Position numbers and translations under genes: made by a program. The notes under the pieces were generated by a model. That model was not told the DNA's origin, searched no databases, and saw only the letters and a program-made list of their open reading frames with translations. Below are positions 3,396-59,370 of a stretch of DNA of 64,000 nucleotides, in pieces. The stretch is taken from contig CM119264.1 of the NCBI GenBank assembly GCA_051294375.1, forward strand, positions 20,858,438 to 20,922,437, read 5' to 3'. How positions within the stretch are numbered: position 1 is the first letter of the stretch; the number at the start of each line of letters is the position of its first letter. Origin of the DNA: Paraspadella gotoi (lineage: Eukaryota > Animalia > Chaetognatha).

Positions 3396-4190
3396 AAAAT
3401 AATAAAATCGTTGTTCAAAACTAAAATCAAACTTTCTCTAGAAAAAAAACATTGTGACATTCTGCATCAAGACCGGACACGCGGACACCGCGGGACCCAG
3501 AGAAAAGCTAATCGAAGATCAAAGAAAAGTGACGACGAGTCCCTTTTAGTCTTGACCACCTAGTCTGCCGATCGAACCCCCCGCCCAAAACACCGTCAGC
3601 CGCGGTCGCCAACGGCCACGCCCTTCGACCCCACCTCCCGGGCGAACCCTCCTCTTCCCTCACCCACTTCCGTGTCGGCAACATAGTCGCGGCTCTGAAT
3701 CACCACTCAAGTCTTAAAACGCAACTGCAGGTGGCTCCCGTTTCAACCTTTTTTTTCAGTTGTTTTTCTTTCTTTCTTCGGGAAGGAAAGTTTTTTCTCG
3801 TTAACCGACGAGAAAACTTGGGCTAAGTTTTCGTTTGGTTTGTTGTGGTCGGGCGTTGTTGTTGTTGTTGTTCTTGTTCTCGCGGTTTTGTCGTTTCGCT
3901 CGTCGTTGGGACGGACGAGAATGTCCGCTCCACCTGAGTTAAAAAGGAATTGTTGCTCAGTGCTTACTTCTTATTCAACCTATGGCAAATAGTAATCAAC
4001 AAATATTACTCTATTGAATGACGAAAATGTCTCTCGTAGACTTCACAATCTTAACTAAATATAAAAATCGGTAGTAAAATCATATGATATCATATGATTT
4101 TACCATACCATACCATACCATACCATACCATTTTACCATACCATACCTAGTGCAAGGTATGGTGGACAAAAATCCACCAACCGTTCATCA

Positions 4191-4263
4191 GCGGCCATTG
4201 GTACTGGGGGCAAGTCATTTGCCTCCAAACCCAAAAGTCCGTGGTTCTAGCCCGGTGGTCGCC
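4191..4263 (+). other. tRNA-derived module in LTR (Gly-like anticodon loop), not a functional tRNA
   Basis: 73 nt; acceptor-like stem GCGGCCA/TGGTCGC; T-arm-like CCGGG-GTTCTAG-CCCGG (perfect in the 3' LTR); loop CTCCCAA in other copies. Confidence 0.6.
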
Positions 4264-4264
4264 T

Positions 4265-4340
4265 AGCAGTTAAAAGGGACGGGGCGCTTAACCCGCCTGA
4301 AACATGGTGTTACAGCCTGATCCGAAGCTCAGGGACTGCT
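4265..4340 (+). ncRNA. Twister ribozyme, P5-type permutation, predicted cleavage U4289/A4290
   Basis: P5 AGCAGTT/GACTGCT; GA+CGG pairing with L4 CCG (T1); TAA-CCC-GCC; P3 TGWAAC/GTTACA; P4 CCTGA/TCAGG closing loop TCCGAAGC (T2 GC/GC). Confidence 0.85.
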
Positions 4341-5159
4341 TATATTGAGCGGTTCTGTCACTAACACATAATAATAATCACTGTCTCTTCATTGGTGAGC
4401 CCGACTTCCGAACACAACAGCAACAACAACACCTTCAGGCGACATGCCTCAATCTGGTGATGCACTTTCCGCCAACAACACATCAGGCAACATGCCTCAA
4501 CTTGGTGACGAACTTTTCACCAACAACAACAATACACTGAAGAGACGCAACAGACTTCTCCCTACGGGAGGGGGATGTATGGGGGACTAAAATCCACCAA
4601 CCGTCATCAGCCGCCATTGTGCCGGAGGCAAGTCATATGCCTCCCAACCAAAGGTCCGGGGTTCTAGCCCGGTGGTCGCCTAGCAGTTAAGAGGGATGGG
4701 GCACTTAACCCGCCTGTAAGAGCTCAGTGACTGCTTATATTGAACGGTTCTGTCACTAACACATAATAATAATCACTGTGTCTTCAAAGGCAAGGAAAAT
4801 AAAATGTATCGATGCGCCGTGGCGATCGATTTTCCTTATCTCGTTCCTAATCTTCCCTCCACTCCGAAAATTCTTAACCCTGTACTTCTTTTTCCATTAT
4901 AAGTTATATTTCTTCTTTTCCAGGAACCCTTCCTCAGCTGATTTTCTAAGTTTCTAAATACTAACCTGTAAACCTATATACTCTTTTTAACTCACCCCCT
5001 CATTCTACCTCGCGTGTCCCATTCCCGGCTCCGCAACTCCACACTCCTCCTCCCAACATTTTTATTGATGATCGTTGCCTTTTTGTTTTCCCTTCGGTTT
5101 TCATTTCCGTTGCTTCACCGACGAAAGTGATGTCAGCCACCTCCGCCGGCTGCGCTGTA

Positions 5160-5683: not shown

Positions 5684-7280
5684 TAGGGCGTTGAAAAATA
5701 ACGAAATATTACAAATCAAGTGAGGTAAATAGCTATTTTAGTGTAATAAAGTCTGTAGAATTCGATGATGATAACCATTTTTTTTGTATAGTCTCATCTT
5801 CTTTGTCGGGAATGGCGATTTTTGTAGCACATAAGGTGCTATTAAAATGGAGCAAACATTGTAGAGTATAAAAAACTCAAATATTAAGATTTTATAAAAG
5901 CCATATTTATAAGGCGTAGTAAAATTTCTAAATTTAACTTTACTTAAAATTCTAAATTTGAGGAACGAACAACATTATATTAATGAACATTTATGTAATC
6001 AAAAAATTATAATAAATTTTACAATTTACGCAGTAGGCCATATTTATACTAGTACTAAACCAATAAATGTTAAAATTTCAAAACAGTTTTTTAAAGATTT
6101 TTTTGCAGATTTGGATTCGTCATAAAAAGTTGATAAAAAGAAATATAACTCTTTTGAAAAATTCCTTCATTAAGTGGGTCAAAAATTAGAAAAAGCTATA
6201 TTTTAAGCTGAAAATTAACTTTTTATATATTAAATATAGTTTTTTTAATTTTTAACCCACTAATGAAATAATTTTTTAAAATGATTTATATTTTCTTTTA
6301 TCAACTTTTGACGAAGAATTCAAATCTGCAATCAAAATTAAGAAAAGCCTACTTTGAAAATTTTTGATTTTATAAGGATAGTACTATATATAAATATAGC
6401 CTACTGCGAAAATTAAAAAACATAAAATTAATTTTTTTTACAAATTAATGTTCACTGATGGTATGTTGTTCATAATTGACTTTTAGAATTTTCGTAGGTA
6501 ACTTTCACTACGCCTTAATATTTAACATACATAATATAAAAAAAAGACCCATATAAATATTTTGATAAGTTTATTTACAAATTTTATATTTTAATAATAG
6601 TTTGTTAGCTATATTTATTAATAAATAATAATAAAAAATAAGCTAAAGTGAAAAAATAAAAAATTTTAAATTTTAAAACCGGATTTAAATTCCTTACAAA
6701 AGTTTATATAAGAAACGTATAATCCATTTTAAAAAAATCTTTCATTAAGTAAATTAAAAATAATAAAAACTATTATTTTTGTTTATTTTTCAATTTTTGG
6801 CTTAAAATTATAGTTTTTCTGAATTTTGACCAACTTAACGACATAATTTTGATATAAAAATTATATTTTCTTATATTAACTTTTTGCAAAGAATGCAAAT
6901 CCATGAAAAAATTTTTAAATTATTATTTTTTAACTTTAACCTAATTTTTACTCATAATTATAAAGAAATATAGTTAACTAACTTTTTATAAAACATAAAA
7001 TTTAGAAATAAACTTACCAAAATATTTTTATATATATATATTTTTATATTTCAAAAGCTCATATAAATTTTATAAAATTTTAATAATTTGATTTATCATA
7101 ACTTATAATGGTTTTGCTATTTTATAACAATTTTATATAAATTAAAAACCGTCATTTCCGACAAGAAAGATAAAATTATACAAAAAAATGGTCATCACCA
7201 TCGAATTCTAGACTACATTACACTAAAATACCTATGTACCTTACTTGATTTGTTATATTTTGTTATTTTTCAACGCTCTA
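5684..7280. mobile_element. hAT-like non-autonomous DNA transposon (family M1) with a nested M2 element
   Basis: Long imperfect TIRs TAGGGCGTTGAAAAATAAC.../...GTTATTTTTCAACGCTCTA, 8-bp TSD ACGTATAT; uninterrupted copy at 48833-49842. Confidence 0.9.
5910..6517. mobile_element. MITE family M2 (TIR TAAGGCGTAGT), nested in M1
   Basis: TIRs TAAGGCGTAGT/ACTACGCCTTA, flanking duplication ATATTTA; empty site visible in the 48833-49842 copy. Confidence 0.9.
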
Positions 7281-12053: not shown

Positions 12054-12947
12054 TTCGTCGCCGGAATAAAAAACGTCTTTACGAACGCATGACTATTGTC
12101 TGAGCTAAATTAATCTACGGTCAACCGAAGGCGAGCGTAAAATTTTTTTTCTTCTTTTTTTTAATCTTTTGTGCGAAATCGTTTTAATACTATACGAGGA
12201 GCTAGTTCGGCTAGACAGTAAACGCGATGTTTGAAAGAAAAACTTCTCTTTAATAAGGTTGCTGTTTTGGGGTCTTTCTATTTATTATTTTATAAGGAAT
12301 TGAGAACATGTAAAACATTTATCAGAAAGAATAAAGCATTAGAAACATTCTTGAAATATTTATTTGAAACCTGTCGCTATAAAAAATTGACCATACGAAA
12401 AAAGGTACATAAAGAAAAGACACATACATTTTTTCTATATAAATTTTATGATAATTGATTTTGCTTTGAGTTCGTAATGCGCGAAACAGGATAAGGAGCA
12501 AATTCGAGCATTTTAATCAGAAATAAAAGGAAATTCGTCACTAGAAATTCATGGCTATATTAATATGGGTATCAAAATAAAGTCCGTTATACTTATAAAT
12601 TTATTCAGGAATATTGAATCTTAAAACTAAGGTAGTTATATTTCTGAACCTCATAACTTTGAATGGTCCCCAAGAAGATATTTGTTATGCTACAGAATCG
12701 GAAAACATATTATGAAATTGGTACAACCAATATAAAAATTATCCATTATATTATACAGTTTTTTAAGAGCTTTCAGGTTATATCAATATTATTGCTATTT
12801 TTTTTTAAATCGTCTTGAAAGAGAGGTGTAGTCGGGCATTGCCTAGGTTCTCCGCGCCTAGAAGTTGTGACCCGTTGGCTCATTGAGTAAAGCCATCAGC
12901 TCATGACCTCTAGGTACCGGATTCAATCCCAACCCGGTACCTACCCT

Positions 12948-13027
12948 GCGGGAAGCGTGAGGACGGCCGTAAGCCGCCTTTGGGGCATGGAAAACCCTCA
13001 AGCCTGGTTCCAAGCCCAGGGACCTGT
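12948..13027 (+). ncRNA. Twister ribozyme, P5-type, predicted cleavage U12970/A12971
   Basis: P5 GCGGG/CCTGT; GA+GGA pairing with L4 TCC (T1); CGGCCG; TAA-GCC-GCC; P3 TTGGGG/CCTCAA; P4 CCTGG/CCAGG closing loop TTCCAAGC. Confidence 0.8.
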
Positions 13028-13275
13028 TCCATGGCTGCAAGAGGGGGTTATAGAAGTTACGGACAGTCATCTTCAGCCCACATAGCGCCTTATCCACACT
13101 GGTGAGCCCATCCTGTTGAGCGTATTCCAACCTTCTGATTCCAGGCCCTTGGTCTAGCTGAAGATTGCTCCCCTCCCTCCACTGGAAGCAGTGCAGGGTG
13201 GGTTACAATTTGGAGGGCATGTAGTCGGGCATTGCCCAGGTTCACCCCGCCTAGAAGCATGGCGCCTTTAGTTGT

Positions 13276-13348
13276 GACCCGGTGGCTCATTGAGTGAAGC
13301 CATCAGCTCATGACCACTAGGTACCGGATTCAATCCCAACCCGGTTCC
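13276..13348 (+). other. tRNA-derived module in LTR (Met-like CAT loop); second copy at 12869-12941
   Basis: 73 nt; A-box-like TGGCTCATTGAG, loop CTCATGA, B-box-like GGATTCAATCCC, partly pairing ends GACCCGG/CCGGTTC. Confidence 0.6.
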
Positions 13349-13354
13349 TACCCT

Positions 13355-13434
13355 GCGGGAAGCGTGAGGACGGCCGTAAGCCGCCTTGGGGGCATGGCAA
13401 ACCCTCAAGCCTGGTTCCAAGTCCAGGGACCCGT
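13355..13434 (+). ncRNA. Twister ribozyme, P5-type, 3' LTR copy, predicted cleavage U13377/A13378
   Basis: Same fold as 12948-13027; P5 GCGGG/CCCGT; L4 TTCCAAGT turns one T2 pair into G-U. Confidence 0.7.
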
Positions 13435-14130
13435 TCCATGGCTGCTAGAGGGGGTTATAGAAGTTACGGACAGTCCACGTAGCGCCTTATCCACAGAGGC
13501 AAAATTTTTTTCATTCAAAAATATTAAGTTATCGAGCTTAAAAACCTCTCACCGTTTAAGTAAAAGTAAACTAAAGGACATGATATCTATACATAAAAAT
13601 TTGTATGTTTTGTCTTTAACGATCTGTTTTTAAAATGTTAAAATCTCTTTGTTTTCGTTTGCGAAATATTTTTTAGCGGCGAGTTTCAAATGGTCACATA
13701 GTAACTTTTAAAAAAATTATCGTTTTTCTATTTATTAACGTTTAAACAATAACATATCTGTAACATATCCATTTGAGCCCTTTAACGAAAAATAGTTTCG
13801 GTGACATTCTCCAAGACTGCCAATACAATTGCGGGACCACCTACCCTCTCCTCTTTCATCGTCGAGGAAAAAAGGAAAACCTCGGTGACCTTATATATCC
13901 AGGGGCCTCATCTACGGTCCTCATAAAACGTGGCCATAATTTGAGGAAATGGCTCCTTTTTCGCCTTCGATCTCCCGCAGGCGGCACCATAAACAAACCC
14001 AAACGCGACTTTTTTCCACCTCGTCGAGATTCGCCGTCTGGGCACAACCACTTTTTCTTCATCATTCCCCGTCTTTCTCTCTTCCTTTCTTTTATTCTTT
14101 TTTTCTTTGTTTTATTCTTTTTTATTTTTT

Positions 14131-22329: not shown

Positions 22330-23050
22330 TAAGGCGTAGTAAAATTTCTAAATTTAACTTTAATTAAAATTCTAAAAGTGAAGAACGAACAATATTATAT
22401 TAATGAACATTTATATAATAAAAATATTTATAATAAATTTTACAATTTACACAGTAGGCCATATTTATACTAGTATTAAACCAATAAATGTTAAAATTTC
22501 AAAACAGTATTTTCTAAGATTTTTTTGCAGATTTGGTTTTGTCATAAAAAGTTGACAGAAAGAAATATAACTCTTTTTGAAAAATTCCTTCATTAAGTAG
22601 GTCAAAAATTAAAAAAAGCTATATTTTAAGCTGAAAATTAATTTTTTATATATTAAATATAGTTAATAGTTTGATTTGGTCTTTTCATGCCAATAATATA
22701 AAAGGAAAACAAATTATTTCTGGAAGTAACATAATATTTATTTTTAAATAACAAATAAATATTAAATATAGTTTTTTTAATTTTTAACCCACTTAATGAA
22801 AGAATTTTTAAAAATGATTTATATTTTCTTCTATCAACTTTTGACGAGGAATTCAAATCTGCAATCAAAATTAAGAAAAGCCTATTTTGAAATTTTTCGA
22901 TTTTATAAGGATAGTACTATATATAAATATAGCTTACTGCGAAAATTAAAAAACATAGAATTAATTTTTTTTACAAATTAATATTCACTGATAGTATATT
23001 GTTCATAATTGACTTTTAGAATTTTCGTATGTAACTTTCACTACGCCTTA
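22330..23050. mobile_element. MITE family M2
   Basis: TIRs TAAGGCGTAGT/ACTACGCCTTA, 8-bp TSD ATGCTCAT. Confidence 0.92.
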
Positions 23051-23424
23051 ATGCTCATGATAGATTATCTTAACGTTGTATACATTAGCATTTAAATTTC
23101 ATCGGCTCTGGCTACTTAGAGTGAAGAGGTCGCCCAAGGTCATCGATGACATCAAAGTTCATGGCTGAGGCTCTGACTCGGTTTACGTTGTCGATCCGAG
23201 TTTTTTCGCTAAAAAAATTGAAACTACCACAGACGCGAGTTCAGCGGCCAAAGGCTTTCACCACTCCTCTCGCTCCCCTGTAATGAACCAGAAGGAGCGG
23301 ACTGCTCCTCCTCATCCTAACCACTCCTTCGAAATGGCACCCAACGCTCGGCCTCGTGGCGTCGATGGACCGAAACGGAAAAAGTCGAGGAATTTTTCAA
23401 TCATTAACGAATTCGAGTGAAGCG

Positions 23425-34094: not shown

Positions 34095-37000
34095 TAATAA
34101 TAAAAAAATCGTTGTATTGGCACATTAATAAACCTTTCTTAATATTCACTTAGCAACGAAAATAGAGAAAATATACAATGTCTACATATAATCTATAACT
34201 TTTTTGCAAATGAAAAAATCTGAAAATTAAAATTGTTACTTTTTATCATCCAATGTTTAAAGAAAGATATAACGTCAGCAAAAGGTAGCGCTTCAAAAAA
34301 AAGCTGTAACATTTAACGAAATATTTTTTGCCGAAATTGTTTTCAAACGCGAAAGGTTGACCACAAATGTGGCCGCTCTCTCCCTCTAATCTGCCGGGCA
34401 TAAATGAAACGTAAAAGCATTTACGCGCCAATCGGCCAATCAGTCGCCACCATCGCCAACTCTGACGCACAAACTTAAGCGCCAGCGCCACTACCAACAC
34501 CGACGCCGCGACCGCAATGGAAGGCGACTGCAGACAGAAGGAGATAAACAAGAAAATCACGAGCAACGCGGAGAAGATAAGGTCAAATGAGTTGAGGAAG
34601 AAGGGAAAGTGGGGGGATGGGAGGAGGAGGAATGAGAGGGAGGAGAGGGTATTGCGCGCCAGTTTTAAAACGGCAGGAGAGGCGTGCCTCGGGACCCTTG
34701 AAAGCCAAGCTCCTCCAATCCCTCACAATTCCATTAAAACTTGACAAGACTACATTTGTATAATTTTTGTGGTTTTTTTTTAAAATATAAGTGTTATTTT
34801 ATGTATCTCCTATTCTGTATTTTTTTATCTGTTTTACTTAGGTAGGTAGGTAGGTAGGTAGGTAGGTCGGTTGATATTTGCGCCGTTTTTTTACACAACC
34901 TCGCCAAAACGATACATGAAAAATATTTAACTTTCCTCAGAAATTTTTAAACATCATTAAGAAACATATGAATCGTGATGAGAAGATTTTCTGAAAAAAA
35001 TTGGTCCGTACGAGAAATAAAGGTCACTGATTATTTACGGGATTGTTCTTTTTTTTTTTTTTGCTCTTTTGAGAGAAACTCGAGATGTCAGGAGATTATA
35101 GAAAAAAAAAAGAAAAGATTTAGGATCAAATGGTAAATTTTTTTAAAACCATTCTGACTTCCATCGTTAAGGAATGAGTTACGCTTATTGATATTGATGA
35201 TTAATGATCTACAAGCCGGCAGTCCACCCTATTGAAAATTCAATAATTTCCAAAGTGAATTGTTGAATAAAACTAAAGTTTTAAATTAAAAAATGTTACA
35301 TTTGAGTATACCAAAATATTATCTTAAACAACAATTACCACAATTTTTAAAGAATGAAGATAAAAATCCATTTTAATTATAATATAAAATTATTCTATCA
35401 TATACTTTGCAAAAACTATTGTCAGCGACGCTAAACTAAAAAAGTCAATAAAATTATTTCCACATTTTCATTGAACTTCAAGAAAACAATTTTCGTGTTT
35501 ATGCCTTGTCACTTGATACAGAACATCCTGATAAACTAAACCACTCTTCATCAAGTCGTCTTAGGTTTTCCGACCTTTTTATTTCCATTCGAAATTTAAT
35601 TTAAGATCTGCACGATATCCCATCCTAAGGTTTTATAATTTCTCTCTCTCCATCAAATTCCAACACGTTGCGTAGATCGACCGGCTCATATTTGCTTGTA
35701 AGCGAAATATGTTCCTGAAAATAAGTAAAAAAAAGAACGGAAGAAAACAAGTTCAACTCGTAAATCAAAAAGAGAAGTCCCTAATTCGGAACAAATTCCG
35801 AGAACTAATCGCAGAGGTAATAAAAAAGGTACAAAAGGAAGTGGAATGATTATATCCTGATTTATATTATTATTTTGATTATTTGTCGGATCGTTACCAA
35901 GATCGATCGAGGTGGGATAAACTTACCCGAACTGAGATCGCCTGGAATAATTATTCTCGAAATCTCGAGGATTAAAGTGACAGTCTTCGACAAAATTTGA
36001 GCATGCGCAAAAAAAAGAATTACAACTACAACGACAAGGTCTACTACAAAACGACAACTGAGAAAAAGAAAAACAACTTACGGATTCTACAAAGTAAGTT
36101 TGGACGAATAATTTTCCAGGTCAAATCTGCGTCACAACGTAACCTGACGAAAATTTAAACCCGACCTTAAAAAAAAACTTGAATGACTGGTGCCCCGCCT
36201 TACGAAATCGCCTAAACTCAAGCGAAAAAAACTTTTTCAATTTCTTTTTTTATTTTTAAGATTTATTTTCTAAAAATTGTGCCATAATTACGTTATGTTC
36301 TGATTTGTACAAACAAATTTTTATTTTATATATAACTTCATGAACTCATTTTCTTTTCGATACTTTTATTTTTGAAAAACTGGATTCGAAGTGTTTTTTT
36401 CCTTTCCTTTTCGGTATTGTTGTCGTTGCTCGTCTTCGTCCTCGGGGTCTTTGTCCTCTTGGTTGTTTTCATTCGCCTTATGGTGTCGTGATTATTATGT
36501 TATAATTATAAACTATGATTTATATATTAGATATCAGTGTTTTCTAAATTAATATGAAATTAATGTTTTCTAGTTGAAAATTAATTTTTACAACCGTTTG
36601 TGTGAACGGACGAACGGTACGACGAGCATTATTTAAAAAAAAACATATTCTAAGTCAATTCTTTCGACTATTTTTTTTTATTTTTAAATAAAATACCTTC
36701 AATAAAGTGTAGATAATTATCAGTAAACTGTAAATCAATTACTTTATTCTTTTCCAGACCAAACGTTAATTATTGTAAATAAAAAATGCTATACTAACAA
36801 ACTTTGGTAATCTTACCAATAAAAATGATGTAAATAACTGTCTTTGTTCTTGCACTTTGTCGTTTCTTTATTATTTACCGTCTGGTCGCGGCCAACGAAA
36901 TTCTTGCATCACAGTGACTTCAAAGTGCAAACCCTCGTTGAGTCTCTGTAAGTATTGGGTTTATCTGCCCTGGAGTCTCTGTTAACAATTTTTTTTCTTT

Positions 37001-38924
37001 TTTTTTCAGAGTTTGCGACAGCAAAACCAATGTTATTTAGACCAACGGGACGAATTCTTCTGCCCTGCAAATGGTATGAAATAAATTTGTTTCCAAAATT
37101 AAAATTTGAAACTCGAATAAACACTGTTTTAACTTTATAAATTAAGACATAATTTGTATATATATCGAATTTTATAATTGTTCCGGCATTTTACGTATCT
37201 TTCACGATAAATTTCCTACTTAATACAACATATTGAATCACAAGAAATGCGTCGTAAAAGAAACGGTGTGTGAAATACCGGGATGGAACCATATATCCGA
37301 AGAAAAAAAATCATTACTATAAAACTGTTAATAATTTCTTGAAATGTGAATAAATATTCAAGTTGTTCTCTTTCTTAACTTTTAGCCAATATATCGTTTG
37401 TTTTCAAATACTTTGATGCTCTGTTTTCTCCACGCGGTTTGGAAGAAAAAATGTTTGTCTAGTCTCATTCTAAAACATACCAGATAAAATTATTTATGAA
37501 AGGTTGAAAAAATTAGACGGTAATAAGTCAGGTTCGGGTAAATTTTCTAAAAATTTTGTTTTACTTACCTTAAATAAATTAAAATATGTTTATTTGGATG
37601 CTTATAAAAATTTGAAGATTAAACGCACATTATAATTATCATAAGTAGGCTTAACTCCTATGTAATACAAAGCGACTAAATATTTTTTAGTTGGTTTAAA
37701 TTTTTTTCTTTTAAAACACTGGCAATGAAAGTAAAAGGCCAGAAACATCTTTTACACGATTTTATAGTGTATGTTAAACAATCCATAACACTACTATTAA
37801 GTTGCCGGTATAAGGTCCTGCTTTTTTCCCAAAAAAAAATTTTAAAAAATTTCGTTTTTTACGTGTTCCCCAGCGGACGTAATCAAGAAAAGACCGACGT
37901 GTCCGTCAAGCCTTGAAGAAATGCTTCGACGCAACCACACTGCCCTGCTGGTGGATGACGCGGACAGGCTGCTCAACTTCACTTCGACAGGTGGACGCGT
38001 CAGGAGAGTTGTCCCAACGGGCTACGACGACAAAATAGGGCTCCCAGTATGACGTGGGCGAGAAAGAGAATAATTTTTTATTAGTTCTGTTGCTCCAGCA
38101 TTATTCAATATCTTCCATATATTACAAATATTCATTATCGTTTATTCATTCATTATTCATCATTCATCATTCACATTCATCATTCATTCATTCATTCATA
38201 CATATCCCATAATCGCAGTGAAGAAATCATGGAGAATCTTTATACATTATATTACTGTTTGTCACTGTAGCGTATGCAGGACAGAAGAAAATCCTTTGCC
38301 TCTATGCTAGTCTGACTCTGCTTACAGCTAGACCCGACTCTATAATTCACTTTTGTCGGTCCGGTCGTCCTGCCTCCCTCATATATGTACACAACTTATA
38401 TCATGCTCAGAACATCGATAATTATTCGAAAATTATGATAAAAAAAAAAGATATGTTCTCTATATATACACATATGTATAAACAGATAAAGGAGTCCGTC
38501 CGTCCGTCCGTCCGTCCGTCCGTCCGTATCCGTCCGTCTCGCGCTCGCCCCTGTCGTCCGTCCGTCCGTCGCGATCGCCGTTCGCCCACGACTTAGCCAA
38601 AACCACATAACTCGTAGTGTTTTAATTATGAATTGGGAATGGATATTGAAATGTGTGGGTAGAAAGGTGGTATTGAGCTGGTATATGATTTTGATGAATC
38701 TCGTGAGTGGAAAATGAAAAATGACAAAAATTAAAAAATAATTCACTATGCAACGACCAATTACTCAAGGAGGGATGGGTTGATGACTGAAAATCTCTCT
38801 CTCCCNNNNNNNNNNNNNNNNNNNNNNNNNTCTCTCTCTTTCACTTTTCACCATTTCAAAATTATCTTCTCCTTCATCTGGCCACTGTCCTTTACTCAGC
38901 CCTCTCTCTCTCTCTCTCTCTCTC

Positions 38925-38973
<49 letters not shown>

Positions 38974-41793
38974 ACTTAATGTGTAGAGCATTTTGTTAAT
39001 GTTTTTTCATAGCTGATGAAGACTCTAACCAACAGATTCGAAATATGTACTCTTAATAATAAAAAAATCGTTGTATTGGCACATTAATAAACCTTTCTTA
39101 ATATTCACTTAGCAACGAAAATAGAGAAAATAATACAATGTCTACATATAATCTATAACTTTTTTGCAAATGAAAAAATCTGAAAATTAAAATTGTTACT
39201 TTTTATCATCCAATGTTTAAAGAAAGATATAACGTCAGCAAAAGGTAGCGCTTCAAAAAAAAGCTGTAACATTTAACGAAATATTTTTTGCCGAAATTGT
39301 TTTCAAACCGCGAAAGGTTGACCACAAATGTGGCCGCTCTCTCCCTCTAATCTGCCGGGCATAAATGAAACGTAGAAAGCATTTACGCCGCCAATCGGCC
39401 AAATCAGTCGCCACCATCGCCAACTCTGACGCACAAACTAAGCGCCAGCGCCACTACCAACACCGACGCCGCGACCGCAATGGAAGGCGACTGCAGACAG
39501 AAGGAGATAAACAAGAAAATCACGAGCAACGCGGAGAAGATAAGGTCAAATGAGTTGAGGAAGAGAGGGAAAGTGGGGGGATGGGGAGGAGGAGGAAATG
39601 AGAGGGAGGAGAGGGTATTGCGCGCCAGTTTAAAACGGCAGGAGAGGCGTGCCTCGGGACCCCTTGAAAGCCAAGCTCCTCCAATCCCTCACAATTCCCA
39701 TTAAAACTTGACAAGACTACATTTGTATAATTTTTGTGGTTTTTTTTTAAATATAAGTGTTATTTTATGTATCTCCTATTCTGTATTTTTTTATCTGTTT
39801 TACTTAGGTAGGTAGGTAGGTAGGTAGGTAGGTCGGTTGATATTTGCGCCGTTTTTTTACACAACCTCGCCAAAACGATACATGAAAAATATTTAACTTT
39901 CCTCAGAAATTTTTAAACATCATTAAGAAACATATGAATCGTGATGAAGAAGATTTTCCTGAAAAAAATTGGTCCGTACGAGAAATAAAGGTCACTGATT
40001 ATTTACGGGATTGTTCTTTTTTTTTTTTTTGCTCTTTTGAGAGAAACTCGAGATGTCAGGAGATTATAGAAAAAAAAAAGAAAAGATTTAGGATCAAATG
40101 GTAAATTTTTTTAAAACCTTTCTGACTTCCATCGTTAAGGAATGAGTTACGCTTATTGATATTGATGATTAATGATCTACAAGCCGGCAGTCCCATTGAA
40201 AATTCAATAATTTCCAAAGTGAATTGTTGAATAAAACTAAAGTTTTAAATTAAAAAAATGTTACATTTGAGTATACCAAAATATTATCTTAAACAACAAT
40301 TACCACAATTTTTTAAAGAATGAAGATAAAAATCCATTTTAATTATAATATAAAATTATTCTATCATATACTTTGCAAAAACTATTGTCAGCGACGCTAA
40401 ACTAAAATAGTCAATAAAATTATTTCCACATTTCATTGAACTTCAAGAAAACAATTTTCGTGTTTATGCCTTGTCACTTGATACAGAACATCCTGATAAA
40501 CTAAACCACTCTTCATCAAGTCGTCTTAGGTTTTCCGACCTTTTTATTTCCATTCGAAAATTTAATTTAAGATCTGCACGATATCCCCATCCTAAGGTTT
40601 TATAAATTTCTCTCTCTCCATCAAATTCCAACACGTTGCGTAGATCGACCGGCTCATGTTTGCTTGTAAGCGAAATATGTTCCTGAAAATAAGAATTAAA
40701 AAAAAAGAACGGAAGAAAACAAGTTCAACTCGTAAATCAAAAAAGAGAAGTCCCTAATTCGGAACAAATTCCGAGAACTAATCGCAGAGGTAATAAAAAA
40801 GGTACAAAAGGAAGTGGAATGATTATATCCTGATTTATATTATTATTTTGATTATTTGTCGGATCGTTACCAAGATCGATCGAGGTGGGATAAACTTACC
40901 CGAACTGAGATCGCCTGGAATAATTATTCTCGAAATCTCGAGGATTAAAGTGACAGTCTTCGACAAAATTTAATGCGCAAAAAAAAAGAATTACAACTAC
41001 AACGACAAGGTCTACTACAAAACGACAACTGAGAAAAAGAACAACAACTTACGGATTCTACAAAGTAAGTTTGACGAATAATTTTCCAGTCAAAATCTGC
41101 GTCACAACGTAACCTGACGAAAATTTAAAACCCGACCTTAAAAAAAACTTGAATGACTGGTGCCGCCTTACGAAATCGCCTAAACTCAAGCGAAAAAACT
41201 TTTTCAATTCTTTTTTTATTTTTAAGATTTATTTTGCTAAAAATTGTGCCATAATTACGTTTATGTTCTGATTTGTACAAACAAATTTTTATTTTATATA
41301 TAACTTCATGAACTCATTTTCTTTTCGATACTTTTATTTTTGAAAAACTGGATTCGAAGTGTTTTTTTCCTTTCCTTTTCGGTTATTGTTGTCGTTGTGC
41401 TCGTCTTCGTCCTCGGGGTCTTTGTCCTCTTGGTTGTTTTCATCGCCTTATGTGTCGTGATTATTATGGTTATAATTATAACTATGATTTATATTATTAG
41501 ATATCAGTGTTTTCTAAATTAATATGAAATTAAGTTTTCTAGTTGAAAATTAATTTTTACAACCGTTTGTGTGAACGAGGCAACGAGTACGACGAGCATT
41601 ATTTAAAAAAAAACTATTCCTAAGTCAATTTCTTTCGACTATTTTTTTTTATTTTTAAATAAAATACCTTCAATAAAGTGTAGATAATTATCAGTAAACT
41701 GTAAATCAATTACTTTATTCTTTTCCAGACAAACGTTAATTATTGTAAATAAAAAATGCTAACTAACAAACTTTGGTAATCTTACCAATAAAA

Positions 41794-59370
<17,577 letters not shown>

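Follow-up and report, generated by a model that had tools for sequence, protein, structure and literature searches.

LTRs bearing a tRNA-derived sequence have already been published for the Helenus (TRIMp3) elements (Kojima 2024, PMC10886601), a precedent that the preliminary description of the DNA studied here did not name. According to that article, the promoter boxes of Helenus are retained while the tRNA cloverleaf is lost, and the motifs TRGCY and YGG for box A and GGTTC for box B are given for "most" Helenus families; its accessible text contains no experimental demonstration of Pol III function. Among the animal Helenus LTRs inspected by eye in its supplement, most carry the tRNA part near their 3' end, followed by a T-run. 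Cassandra, as characterized in the same article, is also a TRIM with a Pol III promoter in its LTR, but this promoter is 5S-derived, the host is a plant, and no ribozyme is reported there; Pol III transcription has been demonstrated for Cassandra, whereas the promoter described below is putative.

Plant LTR retrozymes (Cervera et al. 2016, PMC4918200) are non-autonomous elements with a primer-binding site (PBS), a polypurine tract (PPT), a 4-bp target-site duplication (TSD) and a type III hammerhead in each LTR, from which a highly structured unit RNA lacking an R repeat arises. In the retrozyme model, such a unit must circularise before tRNA-primed reverse transcription (PMC4918200). Plant retrozymes use a Met primer, and the accessible text of PMC4918200 and PMC7761336 describes no tRNA-derived head for them. 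Metazoan retrozymes lack LTRs, PBS and PPT according to a review (PMC7761336), which also describes how weak hammerheads of animal non-LTR retrozymes activate each other. The SINE-like Sm-alpha elements of Schistosoma (PMC6765202, PMC2770079) carry a tRNA-derived Pol III promoter directly before a hammerhead; they are non-LTR elements that need tandem copies, and cleavage leaves the promoter at the 3' end of their unit. Twister ribozymes have few assigned functions. In a large-scale assay of naturally occurring twisters, P1 proved dispensable, bulges in P2 were tolerated, and upstream hairpins reduced cleavage (PMC11662667). The T-variant twisters of the non-LTR element Perere-3 are of the P1 type and lie at its 5' end (PMC8501958).

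Here, we analysed a stretch of 64,000 nucleotides (the window) from the chaetognath Paraspadella gotoi (GenBank assembly GCA_051294375.1, contig CM119264.1, positions 20,858,438 to 20,922,437, forward strand). The window contains two families, A and B, of short LTR elements, which are TRIMs of about 600–670 bp with no ORF. We regard them as a candidate animal LTR retrozyme: TRIMs of the Helenus type whose LTRs each contain a predicted twister that covaries between the families and has a palindromic linker. The tRNA head taken alone is an ordinary further record of Helenus, and the ribozyme is the new part. We did not find the pairing of such a head with a palindrome-linked twister in print; the combination of head and ribozyme joins three lines that are separate in print, namely Pol III TRIMs, plant hammerhead retrozymes and twister ribozymes. 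Our literature search, which covered sources outside subscription papers and Repbase, returned no LTR element carrying a twister and no Helenus element carrying a ribozyme; the supplement of PMC11662667, with about 2,600 twister candidates, may list the ribozymes of A and B without context. The accessible text of PMC10886601 does not mention twisters and has ribozymes only in a reference title, and the exact L4 motifs of families A and B are absent from its supplement, where line breaks can hide matches. If our reading is correct, families A and B would be a counter-example to the account of metazoan retrozymes given in the review (PMC7761336), and they would answer how a Pol III transcript with neither a terminator nor an R repeat gains defined ends.

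Two families of short LTR elements

Copy A1 of family A (4158..4786, + strand, 629 bp) consists of a 5' LTR (4158–4391), an internal part (4392–4577) and a 3' LTR (4578–4786), the latter with a 22-nt deletion across P3/P4 of the ribozyme fold described below. The LTRs are identical at 191/209 positions, the termini are TA...CA, and the TSD is AAGG (4154–4157 and 4787–4790). Its PBS (4393..4405, +) differs by one mismatch from Kojima's tRNA-Trp PBS (Figure S2, PMC10886601), the closest match by eye, and its PPT is located at 4566..4575 (+). Copy A2 (46919..47560, − strand, 642 bp; LTRs 47560–47325 and 47150–46919) has the TSD AAGT and damage in both twister copies. In family B, copy B1 (12827..13495, + strand, 669 bp) comprises a 5' LTR (12827–13098), a PBS (13100–13109), a short PPT (13212–13217) and a 3' LTR (13220–13495), with an LTR-LTR identity of 249/262, termini TG...CA and the TSD GAGG (12823–12826 and 13496–13499). 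A decayed solo LTR related to family B (56519..56784, +), flanked by GAGT/TAGT, has lost the box B region by deletion and has a degenerate twister core. All three two-LTR copies have 4-bp TSDs (AAGG, AAGT and GAGG), an identical 10-nt PBS located one base past the 5' LTR, and a PPT preceding the 3' LTR; PBS and PPT share the strand of the head and the ribozyme. Their LTR pairs are 89–95% identical, so A1, A2 and B1 are old copies. The two families are too diverged to be aligned except for a 23-nt stretch in L4.

For both families, contigs from four public runs stacked up on the element, each run contributing between 551 and 11,800 records to each stretch, while the flanks were nearly bare of contigs. 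The contigs leave for unrelated flanks exactly at the LTR ends, with loose ends at 4158 and 4391 in all four runs for A1 and at 13098 and 13220 for B1. This pile-up and break-off confirms the LTR boundaries and the high repetition of the elements, the depth figure being no copy number. None of 89 ORFs scanned in the window matched a retroelement protein family, no helper element was seen there, and the window holds no tandem array of the kind expected from circular templates.

Anatomically, families A and B fall within Helenus as defined from sequence: they are shorter than 1 kb (A1, 629 bp; A2, 642 bp; B1, 669 bp), have two LTRs, a PBS and a PPT but no coding capacity, and carry a tRNA-derived sequence inside each LTR, weaker in B than in A. 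The 4-bp TSD is also that of animal Helenus, and the PBS near the tRNA-Trp type is a further shared feature. Unlike in Helenus, the head lies near the 5' end of the LTR and is followed by a twister fold, not by a T-run. The non-autonomous build, PBS, PPT and 4-bp TSD are shared with plant LTR retrozymes as well, which are larger.

Some smaller features of these elements were also observed. Family A has the termini TA...CA rather than TG...CA (4158–4162; 47560–47556), in agreement with the loose contig ends, and two extra bases between the PPT and the 3' LTR. Its internal region contains, at 4435–4528, a 46-nt direct repeat of small hairpins with CAA-rich spacers between them, a possible packaging signal. 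Four target sites have a common AG core (4154–4157, 47564–47561, 12823–12826 and 56515–56518; AAGG, AAGT, GAGG and GAGT/TAGT). We claim no target preference for this core, as the loose-end consensus of the contigs is plainly AT-rich with an agreement of about 0.4.

A degenerate tRNA-derived head in each LTR

The head of the A1 5' LTR spans 73 nt (4191..4263, +), with a box A-like motif at 4199–4210 and a box B-like motif at 4243–4253, and its counterpart in the 3' LTR is at 4610..4680 (+). In B1, the heads are at 12869..12941 (+) in the 5' LTR and at 13276–13348 in the second copy. The preliminary description placed the head directly before the twister in both families, which we confirmed: P5 begins at 4266 in A (2-nt gap) and at 12948 in B (6-nt gap).

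Relaxed ARAGORN (85% threshold) calls exactly 4191–4263, a call that is not significant by itself because 2–11 calls were obtained per shuffled window (20 shuffles). The default settings called neither the A nor the B heads, and the B heads gave no call even at 80%. We scored a textbook list of 22 invariant tRNA positions in ungapped canonical tRNA numbering against a background of 10 shuffled windows. The A1 5' head has 20/22 invariants, a score that no other of the 127,856 positions on the two strands reaches, and no site in the 10 shuffled windows scored 20 or more. The B1 5' head has 17/22, a level reached by 4.6 sites per shuffled window, and is convincing only because of its fixed place, ending 6 nt before the ribozyme with the exact spacing kept. 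These are the ungapped scores; in a gap-tolerant version, the A heads came out top and B was not above background. The A head is almost certainly derived from a tRNA by its sequence register, and a tRNA origin of the B head is very likely.

Of the promoter-like boxes reported previously, box A is imperfect. As for box B, the A head contains GGTTC. The B head has a mismatch at position 53 in both window copies, and the canonical base is found there in 126,007 of 126,901 depth in run X1, so that box B in Kojima's sense is present in A and in most B contigs. Most contigs also have the pairing base at position 7 of the B head. For box A, TRGCY occurs in B only, and YGG occurs in neither family.

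The description of the heads as tRNA-shaped could not be maintained. The Rfam tRNA model gave no match for the heads at E<=10, and none of four folded heads gave a cloverleaf, hairpins being formed instead. In the A head, the acceptor stem (7/7 pairs) and the T arm are kept, with two common acceptor polymorphisms (4259 and 4262) that preserve pairing, and one hairpin replaces the D and anticodon arms (1/4 and 3/5 pairs). In the B head, 3/4 pairs of the D stem, 2/5 of the anticodon stem and 1/5 of the T stem remain, and its predicted fold has a competing hairpin. The anticodon is CCA (Trp) in the A1 5' copy and CCC in two other A copies. The earlier labels of Gly-like for A and Met-like for B are unsupported, as they depend on anticodons that sit in broken arms and that differ among A copies. 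The same observations, together with the isotype disagreement common in Helenus (PMC10886601), leave unsupported the proposal that the families captured their heads independently from different tRNA donors. One old origin of the layout would fit at least as well with the common 10-nt PBS, the ungapped head register, the P5 permutation, the bulged P2 and the 6-nt palindromic substitute for P1. The A and B heads are identical at 28/55 positions (15/33 outside the invariants), a value that does not decide between divergence and exchange. In sum of their sequence features, the heads are tRNA-derived in register, degenerate and not cloverleaf, and they are of the kind published for Helenus.

A default ARAGORN call of tRNA-Tyr at 13341–13438 overlies the B twister rather than the head and is a false call on P3/P4. 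Because ARAGORN reads this twister as a tRNA, such elements could inflate the tRNA annotation of this genome.

The predicted twister and its palindromic linker

The type-P5 twister fold of family A (4266..4339, +) consists of P5 (4266–4271/4334–4339), the catalytic GA (4278–4279), T1 (4280–4282/4322–4324), a linker replacing P1 (4283–4288), the predicted cut (4289/4290), T2 (4295–4296/4327–4328), P3 (4297–4315) and P4 (4316–4333). The corresponding fold of family B (12948..13027, +) has the catalytic GA at 12959–12960, T1 at 12961–12963/13009–13011, the linker at 12964–12969 and L4 at 13008–13015, with the predicted cut at 12970/12971 in the 5' LTR and at 13377/13378 in the 3' LTR. In both families, the UAA cut site, the catalytic G and A and the L4 sequence U-NNN-AAGC are all present, P2 has 3 bp with a bulge, and P4 is formed. 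Every pair of T1 (3 bp) and T2 (2 bp) is Watson-Crick in A and B, and two of the three T1 pairs are doubly changed. The folds thus resemble the type-P5 twister RF02684 in the UAA cut site, the GA catalytic pair, T1, T2, P4, the L4 consensus and the P5-open permutation, but differ from it in their sub-threshold scores, the 6-nt palindrome for P1, the bulged 3-bp P2 and an extra P3. Compared with the Perere-3 twisters, they are of the P5 type and located in LTRs.

RF02684 (Twister-P5) scored B at only 17.1 and 16.8 bits against a gathering score of 37.6 and did not match the A twister. Nothing matched Rfam at gathering level; scans of short stretches gave only unrelated weak matches, and the Rfam scans found no hammerhead in families A and B. 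We also used a descriptor based on the published twister consensus (PMC8501958 and the Rfam line), which was written after the sequences had been seen. It finds two sites in the window, in the A1 and B1 5' LTRs, each right behind the head. Neither 300 shuffled windows nor 20,000 shuffles of each LTR gave a P5-type site. Two of the seven LTR copies of the window pass the descriptor, the other five having core damage. Of 25 homologous pairs, 23 form in A as well as in B, 8 of them doubly changed; slid controls gave 3–9. The P3 register used here was chosen after seeing the sequence. Three unpaired cells (4274, 4300 and 12981) have the pairing letter in 93–99.9% of X1 depth and are private to the window copies. 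The catalytic, T2 and cut-site bases of A show no variation of at least 5% in the four runs. In B, the change at 12973, common among the variants listed, turns a wobble into a Watson-Crick pair, the two LTRs competing for contigs there. The twister core is intact in most contigs of the public runs. For the B monomer, the predicted fold is not better than that of shuffles (z −0.2), and for the A monomer it is modestly better (z −2.2); unlike plant retrozyme RNA, A and B monomers are not strongly structured. We consider it very likely that the twister fold is real and probable that the ribozyme is active in intact copies. Trimming of the transcript by the ribozyme, as proposed in the preliminary description, is supported at the level of predicted structure.

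A pattern combining box B and the twister had no match in viral contigs and one in a metagenome contig, which is GC-rich, of bacterial type and without stems, and which we put down to chance. A 9-nt motif from the region around the predicted cut in the A twister recurs in both Ajax LTRs of the supplement of PMC10886601, which otherwise lack the core; the resemblance is probably fortuitous.

A ribozyme also seems to be present in published Helenus consensus sequences. In Helenus-2_SyJa-LTR and Helenus-2_SyUm-LTR from Synergus gall wasps (DataS1, PMC10886601), an apparently complete, unannotated type III hammerhead can be seen by eye shortly behind the tRNA part. By the same inspection, these elements have a Trp PBS, no T-run and a long complementarity between loops I and II. 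A hammerhead at the same place of the LTR argues that head plus ribozyme may be a recurring design. As the twister motifs of A and B lie below Rfam thresholds, other TRIMs may hide ribozymes, as the wasp Helenus consensus appears to do.

In both families, only 6 nt separate T1 from the cut site, so there is no P1 hairpin. The A linker can pair fully with itself, its terminal pairs being wobbles; the linker of B differs in sequence and is perfectly palindromic. Such self-complementarity is found in 14 of 624 6-mers of the A element and in 11 of 664 of the B element, the test being post hoc. A modelled strand-swapped dimer lies 12 (A) or 16 (B) kcal/mol below two monomers, pseudoknots excluded. 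In two of the four A copies of the window, the palindrome is lost through one transition, a change that is found at less than 5% in the public-run contigs. These features suggest that a swapped dimer between the two LTRs may supply P1, and a palindromic P1 predicts a dimer-dependent twister. A transcript of the complete element carries exactly two ribozyme copies, and the LTRs could thus activate each other, in the manner of the weak hammerheads of animal non-LTR retrozymes (PMC7761336). We give this modelled dimer step an even chance. In the decayed B-related solo LTR, the P1 linker (56652–56657) keeps a 4-nt palindromic core of a different sequence.

Proposed transcription and processing, and alternative readings

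No LTR copy contains a sense T4 or longer T-run, no AATAAA was found near the LTR 3' ends, and TATA[AT]A is absent from every copy. B1 has no sense T4 across its 669 nt. The internal part of family A contains a T4 in A1 and a T5 and a T4 in A2, which could stop Pol III. With neither a sense T4 nor a terminal poly(A) signal in the LTRs, the transcript would have no built-in end; the ribozyme sits at the place of the T-run of most Helenus LTRs and would thereby replace the terminator. An LTR-internal, tRNA-derived Pol III promoter is plausible by analogy with Helenus/TRIMp3 (PMC10886601), and we consider transcription driven by Pol III rather likely.

In the cycle that we propose, Pol III would start at the head of the 5' LTR and read through the 3' LTR. 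The two ribozyme copies would pair through their 6-nt palindromes, with the swapped dimer taking the role of P1, and each LTR would be cleaved at the same position. The predicted products are a piece of about 100 nt carrying the head and an RNA of unit length, 417 nt (A1) or 407 nt (B1), with no terminal repeat, as in plant LTR retrozymes; as in Sm-alpha, the promoter would come to lie at the 3' end of this unit, with the two LTRs supplying the tandem. The ends of the unit RNA, held by P5/P2, would be ligated into a circle. A tRNA (probably Trp) would prime it at the PBS, and a helper would copy and integrate it. The 4-bp TSD and the type of PBS point to a Gypsy-type helper. By analogy with retrozymes, formation of the unit-length circle is slightly favoured. 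The whole reading, in which A and B are gene-less Helenus-type TRIMs with a tRNA head that is likely a Pol III promoter, a predicted twister and a retrozyme-like cycle, could be right or wrong with equal probability. It builds on the observed TRIM anatomy, tRNA register, twister core with covariation, palindromic linker, lack of a T-run in the LTRs and lack of a protein; against it count the imperfect box A, the internal T4/T5 of A, the low Rfam score, the damaged copies, the weak monomer folds and the lack of a tandem array or helper in the window.

Other readings of the same features differ mainly in what they assign to the ribozyme and to the head. Pol III may start at the head while the chief role of the twister is to create the 3' end within the 3' LTR, giving a linear RNA and no circle; the 5' copy would then often stay uncut, and the stretch of about 100 nt between the head start and the cut site would remain as a repeat on which ordinary strand transfer could act. 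LTRs without a T-run do need a 3' end, the head is an upstream hairpin of a type that lowers twister cleavage (PMC11662667), and the short repeat of Cassandra comes from its Pol III unit (PMC10886601). However, the context of the ribozyme is identical in both LTRs, and a palindrome-swapped dimer would build both active sites together, which makes this reading rather unlikely. The twister could also be an inactive fossil in ordinary Helenus elements. The low Rfam score, the missing P1 hairpin and the damage in 5/7 window copies would agree with this, but the compensatory changes in both families, the intact core in most contigs and the retained palindrome render it highly improbable.

The head, too, has been given roles other than that of a promoter in our considerations. 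It might be a dead promoter relic, with the unit excised by two twisters from a read-through or Pol II transcript. Cuts in both LTRs would make the start site irrelevant, read-through by any polymerase is what the retrozyme model assumes (PMC7761336), and the imperfect box A and the internal T4/T5 of family A point the same way. On the other hand, both boxes and their exact spacing survive in families that are otherwise unalignable outside the 23-nt L4 stretch, and B lacks a sense T4 in 669 nt; we hold a dead relic to be unlikely. It is improbable that the head works as RNA instead of as a DNA promoter, mimicking the top half of a tRNA for RNase P/Z, a ligase or the reverse transcriptase: A keeps the 7-bp acceptor stem and the T arm, and its acceptor polymorphisms at 4259 and 4262 still pair, yet in B the box motifs persist although the T stem has 1/5 pairs and a competing hairpin.

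Extending the preferred reading of a Pol III promoter and two mutually activating twisters, we tentatively suggest, as somewhat less likely than not, that animals have LTR retrozymes. These would be a Pol III-driven class of TRIMs with a tRNA head and an exchangeable ribozyme (a twister here, a hammerhead in gall-wasp Helenus), replicating through small circular RNAs. The twister would be an obligate dimer that cuts only with both LTRs in one transcript, a check for full length.

Apart from the TRIMs, the window contains a duplication (34765–35998 and 39731–40971; 98–100% identical, about 4.97 kb apart), with an N gap (38806–38830) between its copies, which may be an assembly artefact. An EGF-like exon is located at 45183–45542 (+); it resembles JAG1-like EGF2 in Pfam (E 5.7e-5, below the cut-off), and its matches among the Atlas clusters (0.93) are EGF clusters of metazoans in general. 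Several copies of an AT-rich repeat are dispersed over the window, at 6052–7075, 22474–23072, 48575–50543 and 54052–56041.
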